Below, one piece after another: positions 53,436-54,466 of a stretch of DNA of 64,000 nucleotides; position 1 is the stretch's first letter, and each line of letters begins with the position of its first letter. Made by a program: the position numbers and the translations under genes. The DNA lies in the NCBI GenBank assembly GCA_963667035.1, contig OY762964.1, forward strand, positions 2,496,001 to 2,560,000, read 5' to 3'. This stretch comes from Candidatus Cloacimonadales bacterium. GTDB taxonomy: Bacteria; Cloacimonadota; Cloacimonadia; Cloacimonadales; JAFGVF01. A model generated the notes under the pieces. It was not told the DNA's origin. It ran no database searches and saw nothing but the letters and a program-made list of their open reading frames with translations.

Positions 53436-53675
53436 TTAGGTTGTAAAAATAAGAAGAAGTGCAATAACTAATGAATAGATACCGGTTGACTCTGAAACAG
53501 CCTGACCGATAAGCATTGTTCTAGTTATAAGACTGGCATGTTCAGGTGAACGAGCGATACCTTCACAGGCTTTACCTGCAACGAATCCTTCACCGAGTCC
53601 AGGACCAAGAGCTCCGATTCCCATTGCGATACCTGCTCCCAAAAGAGCTGCTGCTTTAGCAATGTATTGTTCCAT
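53436..53675 (-). CDS. atpE: Fo c subunit, single hairpin, Na+-type motif
   Basis: GPGLGEG...[11 protein letters not shown]. Confidence 0.96.
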
Positions 53676-53716
53676 TTTTACCTCCGTATAGGTTTTTTTA
53701 TTTTTGTTTATCTAAT

Positions 53717-54466
53717 TTATATAAATATTAATAGAAAAGCTACTACAAGAGCATAAATTGCAGTAGATTCCGAGACTGCGGCTCCAAGAAACATTGTTCT
53801 TGTTATGGTAGGACCTTGTTTGGAAAATCTTCCTAACATATCAGTTGATCTTCCTGCCACAAATCCGATTCCGATTCCGGGACCAAATGTCCCGAATCCA
53901 ATAGCAAGAGCAGCACCTATATAACCGCATATTCTCATTACAATATGCCCAGTTGTTACTGCTTCCGGTGTTATTGGTGTAGAATAAAGAAGTAGCAAGG
54001 ATACAACAAGAGCAAAAATAGCATCTGTTTGTGCTAGTGCTTGCCCTATAAGCATTGTTGTAGTTATCCTGTTCTGTTGATCAGGCATTCTTCCTATTGA
54101 GCGACAAGATTGAGCTCCTGTATAGCCCGAGCCAAAACCCGGTCCTATACTACCAAGTCCAATTGCTAATCCGGCTGCCAATAGAGTTCCGAATCTAAAC
54201 CAACCTGCGTCAGGATTATTCAAACCACTAAAAATCAGAAGAAGTGATACAACCAAACCAAATATAGCTCCGGTCTCAGTCACAGCCTGACTAATGAGCA
54301 TTGTTCTTAAAAGACCATCTCCTGCTTTTGGCTGTCTCATTAACGCAAAAGAAGCTTCTCCTGCTGTCTGACCTTCTCCTATACCTGCACTCAATGAGGC
54401 AACACCTGTTGCAACTGCCGCTCCAAGGAATGCTGCAATGTTAAGAATTTCTGATGTTAATACCAT
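53717..54466 (-). CDS. atpE: Triplicated (three-hairpin) Fo c subunit
   Basis: Three c repeats ending QAVTETGAIF, QALAQTDAIF and AAVSESTAIY; start ATG 54466 after AGGAGAGG (249 aa). Confidence 0.93.
   Translation of the reverse strand: MVLTSEILNIAAFLGAAVATGVASLSAGIGEGQTAGEASFALMRQPKAGDGLLRTMLISQAVTETGAIFGLVVSLLLIFSGLNNPDAGWFRFGTLLAAGLAIGLGSIGPGFGSGYTGAQSCRSIGRMPDQQNRITTTMLIGQALAQTDAIFALVVSLLLLYSTPITPEAVTTGHIVMRICGYIGAALAIGFGTFGPGIGIGFVAGRSTDMLGRFSKQGPTITRTMFLGAAVSESTAIYALVVAFLLIFI

Follow-up and report, generated by a model that had tools for sequence, protein, structure and literature searches.

The F1Fo ATP synthase operon of a Candidatus Cloacimonadales bacterium, an uncultured anaerobe (assembly GCA_963667035.1), contains two adjacent genes for the rotor subunit c, one encoding a single hairpin of 79 amino acids (P0002, the short or single c) and the other a fusion of three hairpins in 249 amino acids (P0001, the long c). 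The operon lies in the 64,000-nucleotide stretch analyzed here, called the window, which covers positions 2,496,001 to 2,560,000 of contig OY762964.1. Sequence comparison confirms that the fusion of three c hairpins is old and real, and both genes probably build one heteromeric c-ring of the type found in Acetobacterium woodii, with one more hairpin in the fused subunit and with fewer ion sites than hairpins.

Two c Subunits in One F-Type Operon

The two c genes were described in an initial annotation of this DNA as adjacent, 249 and 79 codons long, and each provided with its own ribosome-binding site; coordinates and lengths hold up (Table 1). The ATG of the long c lies 10 nt past the stop codon of subunit a, with GGAGAGGA upstream, and that of the short c is preceded by GGAGGT. 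The two c genes are separated by 41 nt, in which a consensus scan (itself weak evidence) found no promoter- or terminator-like site. The long c matches the ATP-synt_C family (PF00137) in three stretches, the number anticipated in the initial annotation, with 145.9 bits (cut-off 24; E = 4.1e-43); the short c matches it in one stretch, with 66 bits. An AlphaFold2 model of the long c, made with 68 aligned sequences, shows three hairpins built from six long helices (pLDDT 96.4, pTM 0.91). Identity among the repeats, and between them and the single c, amounts to only 35-46%; the fusion is therefore an old one and not a collapsed repeat.

Residues are numbered as in Ilyobacter, with the register checked against 1YCE and by a hairpin hidden Markov model (HMM). 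At positions 32, 63-67, and 70, hairpin 1 reads E, VTETG, and F; hairpin 2 reads S, LAQTD, and F; hairpin 3 reads I, VSEST, and Y; and the single c reads E, VSEST, and Y. The residues first assigned to the three repeats were exact. The codons for residue 65 are GAG (Glu; 54275-54277), CAA (Gln; 54029-54031), and GAA (Glu; 53768-53770) in hairpins 1, 2, and 3, and Asp67 of hairpin 2 is encoded by GAT (54023-54025). The single c carries the full two-carboxylate Na+ motif (E32, V63, E65, S66, T67, and Y70, aligned with 3ZK1 and 1YCE). In the long c, the Na+-site residues are complete at the outer edges only, that is, in the acceptor half on hairpin 1 and the donor half on hairpin 3.

Family models place both proteins in the F-type enzyme, with the NCBIfam F0F1 c models giving the highest scores. 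The long c scores 153.3 bits against the NCBIfam model for F0F1 subunit C (NF009998; cut-off 116), the short c scores 68.5 bits against TIGR01260 (cut-off 43.95), and both genes are flanked by those for subunits a and b in an F1Fo operon complete with delta and epsilon. The short c has the one hairpin and the C-terminal-helix carboxylate of a standard subunit; the long c, with three hairpins and Gln in the middle one, does not. It agrees instead with the hybrid rotor of A. woodii, in that a multi-hairpin c with Gln for at least one carboxylate is encoded in an F-type operon, directly upstream of a single c whose Na+ motif is complete, and departs from it in having three hairpins and six helices in place of two and four.

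Two other identities were rejected. N-ATPase models fall short of their cut-offs: TIGR03322 gives 126.6 bits for the long c and 66 for the short c (cut-off 130.85), and TIGR03306 gives 105.3 bits for subunit a (cut-off 302.1). The operon also includes a delta subunit, which N-ATPase operons are not known to have. A V/A-type K subunit is likewise not indicated, since the best V-type model (NF004913) gives 65.5 bits against a cut-off of 211, and no V_ATPase_I domain (V-type subunit I) was found in the genome.

Among solved structures, A. woodii c1 (4BEM_J) comes closest to the long c, both by sequence (E = 1e-26) and by fold (E = 1.1e-7), which upholds the comparison drawn in the initial annotation. 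A. woodii has a mixed ring (9:1) that combines c2/c3 with a two-hairpin c1 in which one site is lost (PMC9171764). The hairpins of c1 read Q/ETS..F and then Q/QTT..Y, placing Phe70 ahead of the dead site and Tyr70 on the outward edge. The operon in the window resembles those for the Na+ F1Fo enzymes of A. woodii and Clostridium aceticum in its F-type composition and in having the multi-hairpin c ahead of the single c, which here too carries the full Na+ motif; further likenesses to c1 are a first hairpin with Glu and Phe70, one exchange of Glu for Gln, and a last hairpin with Tyr70. In addition to the number of hairpins, the differences are that the Gln hairpin is the middle one, that the last hairpin has Ile32 while retaining Glu65, and that the single c has Glu32 (two carboxylates) where A. 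woodii has Gln32. Ring composition is established for A. woodii, whereas the system in the window is known from its genes.

Conservation of the Fusion and Its Partner

Counts of homologues given here refer to 116 proteins of 238-262 amino acids among the best 120 of 410 database matches, the window's own protein included; counts of loci refer to 30 genome loci that carry a long c, at each of which the downstream single c was read. When 151 Cloacimonadota genomes were searched with the three-hairpin c, 81 had a match, full-length in 77, and the full-length form is present in 13 of the phylum's 15 family codes, across classes. The exceptions are families f3 (two of 69 genomes, both weak matches) and f6 (neither of two). 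All five genomes examined from f3 and f6 (G003, G012, G019, G099, and G116; loci L035-L040) have a two-hairpin proteolipid open reading frame (ORF) of 166-183 amino acids, and G099 and G116 have an additional single-hairpin c-like ORF. The two-hairpin proteolipid fits a division made in the available text of a survey (PMC12590816), in which Cloacimonadota clade A has a V/A-type and clade B an F-type enzyme; the corresponding text of two genome surveys of the phylum names just "F-type ATP synthase."

The single c lies directly 3′ of the three-hairpin c at all 30 loci, with a gap of 4-85 nt. The initial annotation had proposed looking in other genomes for a triple c next to a single one, and all 30 loci have this pair. 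On this evidence the three-hairpin c is phylum-wide, with counterparts in other phyla, and is no rarity of this genome.

Residue 65 of the middle hairpin is Gln in 115 of the 116 homologues; the missing Glu of repeat 2, already remarked on in the initial annotation, is thus a conserved loss. Residue 67 of the same hairpin is Ser in 94 homologues and Asp in 16, and the Q-T-D motif is present at 13 of the 30 loci; this motif, for which conservation had been suggested as a check, is clade-specific. Residue 65 of hairpin 1 is Glu in 71 homologues, Gln in 38, and Gly in seven, and Glu32 accompanies it in 62 of the 71 that have Glu65 and in none of the 45 that lack it. Hairpin 3 has Glu65 in 102 homologues and Gln in 14, together with Ile32 (111), Ser66 (116), Thr67 (112), and Tyr70 (113). 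Read across hairpins 1, 2, and 3, the commonest carboxylate patterns are E-Q-E (61), Q-Q-E (36), E-Q-Q (nine), and G-Q-E (four), and the rarer ones G-Q-Q (three), Q-Q-Q (two), and E-E-E (one); the number of carboxylates per fusion thus ranges from 0 to 3, with five homologues having none. The suggestion of a "tunable" ion ratio, made at the outset, is compatible with this variation as far as lineages are compared; nothing shows tuning within a cell.

Several members of the family stand out. P0004 is the sole homologue with Glu in the middle hairpin (E-E-E), and the adjoining residues are Thr-Asp, as in the window. At three loci from small-genome Cloacimonadota (L094, L101, and L113; genomes of about 1.5-1.6 Mb), the long c has G/Q, Q, and Q and no carboxylate; Tyr70 is present on the middle hairpin too, and a normal single c is still encoded downstream.

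The single c is nearly invariant at the ion site, with VSEST..Y at all 30 loci and Glu32 at 29 (Gln32 at one). Its mean pairwise identity in these 30 genomes is 85.5%, as against 60.5, 68.2, and 67.4% for hairpins 1, 2, and 3 of the long c. Such a difference would be expected if the single c were a majority component that packs against itself and the long c a minority component.

Predicted Ion-Binding Sites

The paper on the Fusobacterium nucleatum ring describes, for solved Na+ rings, a site in which Glu65 and residue 32 come from one hairpin and the residue-63 backbone carbonyl and Ser66 from its neighbor; Thr67 keeps a water molecule in place, and Tyr70 supports Glu65. The single c in the window has Glu32, Glu65, Val63, Ser66, Thr67, and Tyr70 and so shares every ligand with this c11 ring (3ZK1), and hairpin 1 of the long c shares Glu32 and Glu65; the F. 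nucleatum ring differs in being homomeric, built of single hairpins with no fused subunit. For fused hairpins the relevant comparison is with NtpK of Enterococcus hirae, in which Glu139/Gln110 and Thr64/Leu61, with Gln65, are the equivalents of Glu65A/Gln32A and Ser66B/Val63B of Ilyobacter (PMC2359735). By this equivalence, the donor half of a site stands on the preceding hairpin of a fused chain. Consecutive fused hairpins of NtpK share a Na+ site, donor first and acceptor second, and two consecutive hairpins of the P0001 model superpose on it (2BL2_A) with a root-mean-square deviation of 2.7 Å over 158 columns; NtpK is, however, a V-type protein of two hairpins from a homomeric ring, with 24% sequence identity.

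A site was therefore taken to pair an acceptor half, residues 32 and 65 of one hairpin (n), with a donor half, residues 63, 66, 67, and 70 of the hairpin before it (n-1). The rule is based on the published equivalences, on the superposition, and on an asymmetry between first and last hairpins seen in 130 representatives of multi-hairpin clusters (2-5 hairpins; 20 of 150 rows were dropped as single-hairpin, fragmentary, or having more than five hairpins). Tyr70 is found in 114 of 130 last hairpins and 10 of 328 others, and E/Q32 in 88 of 130 first hairpins versus 14 of 130 last ones. A test of association between donor and acceptor residues in the same set had a mixed outcome and did not enter into the rule. 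In that test, a hairpin following an internal Tyr70 has a carboxylate in nine of ten cases (odds ratio 8.8, p = 0.02, uncorrected for kinship), which favors the rule weakly.

Applied to the long c, the rule predicts a different fate for each junction. The junction into hairpin 1 is predicted to form a complete two-carboxylate Na+ site if the preceding hairpin gives V63, S66, T67, and Y70, which both the single c and hairpin 3 offer. Between hairpins 1 and 2 a dead site is predicted (Ser32/Gln65). The site between hairpins 2 and 3 should be incomplete, combining Glu65 and Ile32 with Leu63, Thr66, Asp67, and Phe70 of hairpin 2, and the junction out of hairpin 3 is again predicted to be complete. 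Asp67 of hairpin 2 could serve as an extra ligand at the hairpin 3 site, by analogy with Gln65 of NtpK and in this clade only; the idea, put forward in the initial annotation, is geometrically coherent because hairpin 2 is the donor to that site.

Proposed Composition of the Ring

In the proposed mixed ring, the invariant single c would make up the bulk of the hairpins and bring a complete two-carboxylate Na+ site with each, and the three-hairpin c, present once or a few times, would insert a block with degraded inner sites. Such a ring would have fewer ion sites than hairpins and would move fewer Na+ per ATP, that is, run in a higher gear, and the fusion would hold the defective sites adjacent to one another. 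The analysis shows the genes, their fold, their conservation, and their synteny directly; we infer that the two proteins share a ring, in what order and number the hairpins stand in it, that it is coupled to Na+, and how it alters the ion/ATP ratio. Artificial rings offer a parallel: in engineered single-chain c-rings of the Bacillus PS3 enzyme, hairpins remain functional after fusion, the enzyme tolerates impaired sites, and a pair of these lowers activity less if they are adjacent (PMC8809890). The PS3 construct is an artificial fusion of ten hairpins in an H+ enzyme, whereas the protein described here is a natural three-hairpin subunit of Na+ type.

One argument that the two proteins share a ring comes from homologues in which the long c could not easily do without its partner. 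The donor residues S66, T67, and Y70 of hairpin 3 are kept in all 45 homologues without a carboxylate in hairpin 1, and in 67 of the 71 with one; in those 45, only the single c can make use of the hairpin 3 donor half. In the five fusions without any carboxylate, no working ring could be made from the long c alone. The mixed ring is also favored by the adjacency of the two genes, the slow evolution of the single c, the asymmetry between first and last hairpins, and the 9:1 precedent of A. woodii. Weak support is added by a complex prediction for the long and short c, which scored 0.59 (best of three controls, 0.00), with at least 98% contact agreement between runs and a partner pLDDT of at least 84. 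The mark used for such predictions is reached by 116 of 157 solved complexes and two of 215 mismatched pairs.

Several results weigh against a mixed ring or its proposed effect. Scores of 0.60 or less were given by only 18 of the 157 solved complexes and by both mismatched pairs that passed, and the score obtained here, a weak one, may reflect memory of the solved and similar complex 4BEM. In the association test, Ser/Thr67 runs opposite to the donor/acceptor rule (odds ratio 0.42, p = 0.004), and Ser/Thr66 gives a null result in the 130 multi-hairpin representatives. Glu65 of hairpin 3 is kept in 102 of 116 homologues though its site is without a residue-32 ligand and Tyr70, a role that is left unexplained. 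If the ring is assumed to have 11 hairpins and one long c, simple arithmetic leaves nine complete sites, one incomplete, and one dead; 11 hairpins are reported for the rings of I. tartaricus, F. nucleatum, and A. woodii. Finally, in fusions of the E-Q-E type, to which the window's belongs, the junction from hairpin 3 to hairpin 1 is complete, and a homomeric ring of the long c could work.

A more far-reaching version of the mixed ring, which we regard as unlikely, makes the long c an evolvable gear cassette in a chemically mixed ring. The single c would fix the ring geometry and supply standard Na+ sites, while point mutations would switch the sites of the fused block and so set the number of ions per ATP in each lineage at constant ring size. 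The site between hairpins 2 and 3 would then be either a new Na+ site of Glu and Asp or a proton-selective one; with the latter, one rotor would move both Na+ and H+ in each turn.

Two alternative homomeric rings, one of the single c and one of the long c (for example, three or four copies, giving 9 or 12 hairpins), might be exchanged as gears according to the sodium-motive force. The complete junction of the E-Q-E fusion and the separate ribosome-binding sites of the c genes are in keeping with this arrangement. We consider it quite improbable: both genes belong to one operon, and the 41-nt gap between them contains nothing resembling a promoter or terminator; hairpin 3 retains its donor half in every homologue that has lost the hairpin 1 carboxylate; a ring of long c only would be senseless for fusions without any carboxylate; and the closest solved case is a mixed ring (PMC9171764).

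It is also quite improbable that the three-hairpin protein is no stoichiometric part of the rotor and acts as an assembly scaffold or template, acts as a regulator, or is a decaying paralogue. The long c evolves two to three times faster than the single c and has lost one to three carboxylates in different lineages, as might be expected of such a protein; it is nevertheless full-length and stop-free in 77 of 151 genomes across the classes of the phylum, and position-specific motifs are kept (Gln of hairpin 2 in 115 and S66 of hairpin 3 in 116 of 116 homologues). The confident model is ring-like and superposes on solved ring subunits, and the A. woodii counterpart, c1, is described as a genuine ring member. 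An artefact of assembly or annotation that joined three neighboring c genes has nothing in its favor and a practically negligible chance, given the divergence of the repeats, with no collapsed copies, the open and collinear frame in 77 genomes and 116 homologues of about 250 amino acids, and contigs of two public sequencing runs (possibly of the source sample) that span the stretch with 0 differences.

Multi-Hairpin Subunits in Other Phyla

The triplicated proteolipid of Methanocaldococcus jannaschii is not known to keep a carboxylate in more than two of its hairpins. It resembles the long c in having three hairpins per chain (compared here through the description in PMC2359735) and differs in belonging to an archaeal A1Ao enzyme; the presence of b, delta, and epsilon marks the operon in the window as F-type. 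Among 1.84 billion representative sequences, a profile-free search found 1418 matches, including forms of about 160, 245, 320, and 405-435 amino acids as well as chains of 13 and 15 hairpins. The latter, P0143 (968 amino acids) and P0164 (1139 amino acids), have Glu65 in every hairpin and look, from their sequences, like whole rings in one polypeptide. A big four-hairpin group (P0122-P0270) has the pattern E-x-E-E, found in 52 of the 130 representatives; eight have E-E-E-E.

A search of genome contigs (genome_contigs) confirmed 569 loci, of which 80 were kept. Their architectures, in hairpins per successive gene, are 3+1 (65 loci), 4+1 (four), 5+1 (three), 2+1 (three), 1+2 (two), and 3 alone (three). 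They are assigned to Cloacimonadota, Margulisiibacteriota, Planctomycetota (Phycisphaerae and Brocadiaceae), Thermodesulfobacteriota, and Bacillota. For 26 of the 80 loci, hand-picked for diversity, a tree of 109 hairpins (70 columns, quick search) groups them by position (first, middle, last, or single) and not by phylum: the position labels require six changes, against a minimum of three and a mean of 60.4 for shuffled labels, and none of 200 shuffles was as low. Single and last hairpins fall on one side and first and middle hairpins on the other (SH-aLRT 94), with 58 of 106 inner branches unresolved. The tree suggests a single old family with position-specific hairpins, which takes in A. 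woodii c1 and the forms with two to five hairpins in several phyla. Position-specific constraints could mimic such orthology, however, and the tree falls short of proving a single origin.

Operon and Genome Context

The two c genes belong to a canonical minus-strand F1Fo operon (48182-56167) with the gene order a, long c, short c, b, delta, alpha, gamma, beta, and epsilon (Table 1). Two genes for small membrane-associated proteins precede subunit a. Subunit a has an N-terminal extension of about 140 amino acids ahead of its ATP-synt_A domain; an ORF with the Arg motif adjoins the long c upstream at 29 of 30 related loci, with a length of 212-427 amino acids, and the extension is therefore variable. 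A terminator-like hairpin follows epsilon, and the number of terminator-like sites in the region is no higher than expected from shuffled sequence.

Table 1. Genes of the atp operon and the hairpins of the long c (window coordinates)
Feature	Position	Strand	Evidence and remarks
Small membrane protein, ATPase_gene1 (AtpZ/AtpR-like), first gene of operon	55886..56167	-	Pfam PF09527, E 2e-14
AtpI-like protein	55501..55878	-	Pfam PF03899, E 1e-5, 26.3 bits, just over cut-off 25.1
Fo subunit a	54477..55529	-	Pfam ATP-synt_A, E 2.6e-45, residues 151-343; stator Arg in SFRLFGN
Three-hairpin c subunit, 249 aa (P0001), ATG start	53717..54466	-	three ATP-synt_C stretches; AlphaFold2 model
Hairpin 1, residues 1-83	54218..54466	-	predicted acceptor half E32/E65; donor side T66, G67, F70
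Hairpin 2, residues 84-168	53963..54217	-	S32/Q65, without carboxylate; donor side T66, D67, F70
Hairpin 3, residues 169-249 and stop	53717..53962	-	I32/E65, incomplete acceptor; full donor S66, T67, Y70
Single-hairpin c subunit, 79 aa (P0002), ATG start	53436..53675	-	ATP-synt_C, E 3.5e-18
Fo subunit b	52912..53388	-	Pfam ATP-synt_B, E 8.9e-23
F1 subunit delta (OSCP)	52376..52909	-	Pfam OSCP, E 1.7e-28
F1 subunit alpha	50855..52360	-	Pfam ATP-synt_ab, E 2.1e-85
F1 subunit gamma	49980..50834	-	Pfam ATP-synt, E 2.5e-92
F1 subunit beta	48564..49961	-	Pfam ATP-synt_ab, E 6.2e-70
F1 subunit epsilon	48182..48571	-	Pfam ATP-synt_DE_N, E 3.3e-22
Terminator-like hairpin, 10 pairs, directly 3′ of epsilon	48129..48152	-	consensus match only

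The window's genome is a single contig, 98% complete. ATP-synt_C matches (c- or K-type hairpins) occur in it at this locus only, and the atp operon is the sole rotary ATPase of the genome. The genome also encodes two OAD_beta proteins, one membrane pyrophosphatase, and four Rnf-Nqr domain matches at two sites, two adjacent matches at each. The presence of these OAD_beta, Rnf-Nqr, and pyrophosphatase genes points to a sodium-based energy economy.

Three other genes near the operon were noted. A 369-residue ORF (56411-57520, plus strand) is divergent from it and has Cys-rich N-terminal motifs and several hydrophobic segments, with no match in Pfam. A 1288-residue protein (59073-62939, minus strand) has a Peptidase_C25 (gingipain-type) domain (E = 5.3e-80), and a DDE transposase (DDE_Tnp_1, E = 8.4e-13; 45091-46386, minus strand) is encoded about 1.8 kb past the epsilon end of the operon.

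Implications for Energy Coupling

The initial annotation knew of no characterized three-hairpin c in a bacterial F-type enzyme, and the literature searched contains no description of one, although Brandt and Müller (2015) and Matthies et al. (2014) may list such proteins. The available text of a phylogenomic preprint on rotary ATPase evolution (October 2026) names A. woodii alone for mixed rings. The three-hairpin c is apparently an undescribed extension of the hybrid-rotor principle of A. woodii, with a mechanism deduced from sequence logic.

The number of c subunits is usually taken to give the ion-to-ATP ratio of a rotary ATP synthase. Among bacterial F-type enzymes in the literature found, the sole exception to this rule is the two-hairpin c1 type of A. 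woodii (reported for C. aceticum as well). Here a three-hairpin c and an invariant single c are conserved across a phylum of energy-limited fermenters. If the mixed ring is true, site-poor hybrid rotors would be a general way for Na+ ATP synthases to set their gear when working at the thermodynamic limit. Fusions with 0, 1, 2, or 3 carboxylates form a natural series of ready variants for studying how dead or incomplete sites pass the a subunit and how many ions are needed per ATP. For the organism in the window, the size of the rotor probably overstates the number of ions moved per ATP.

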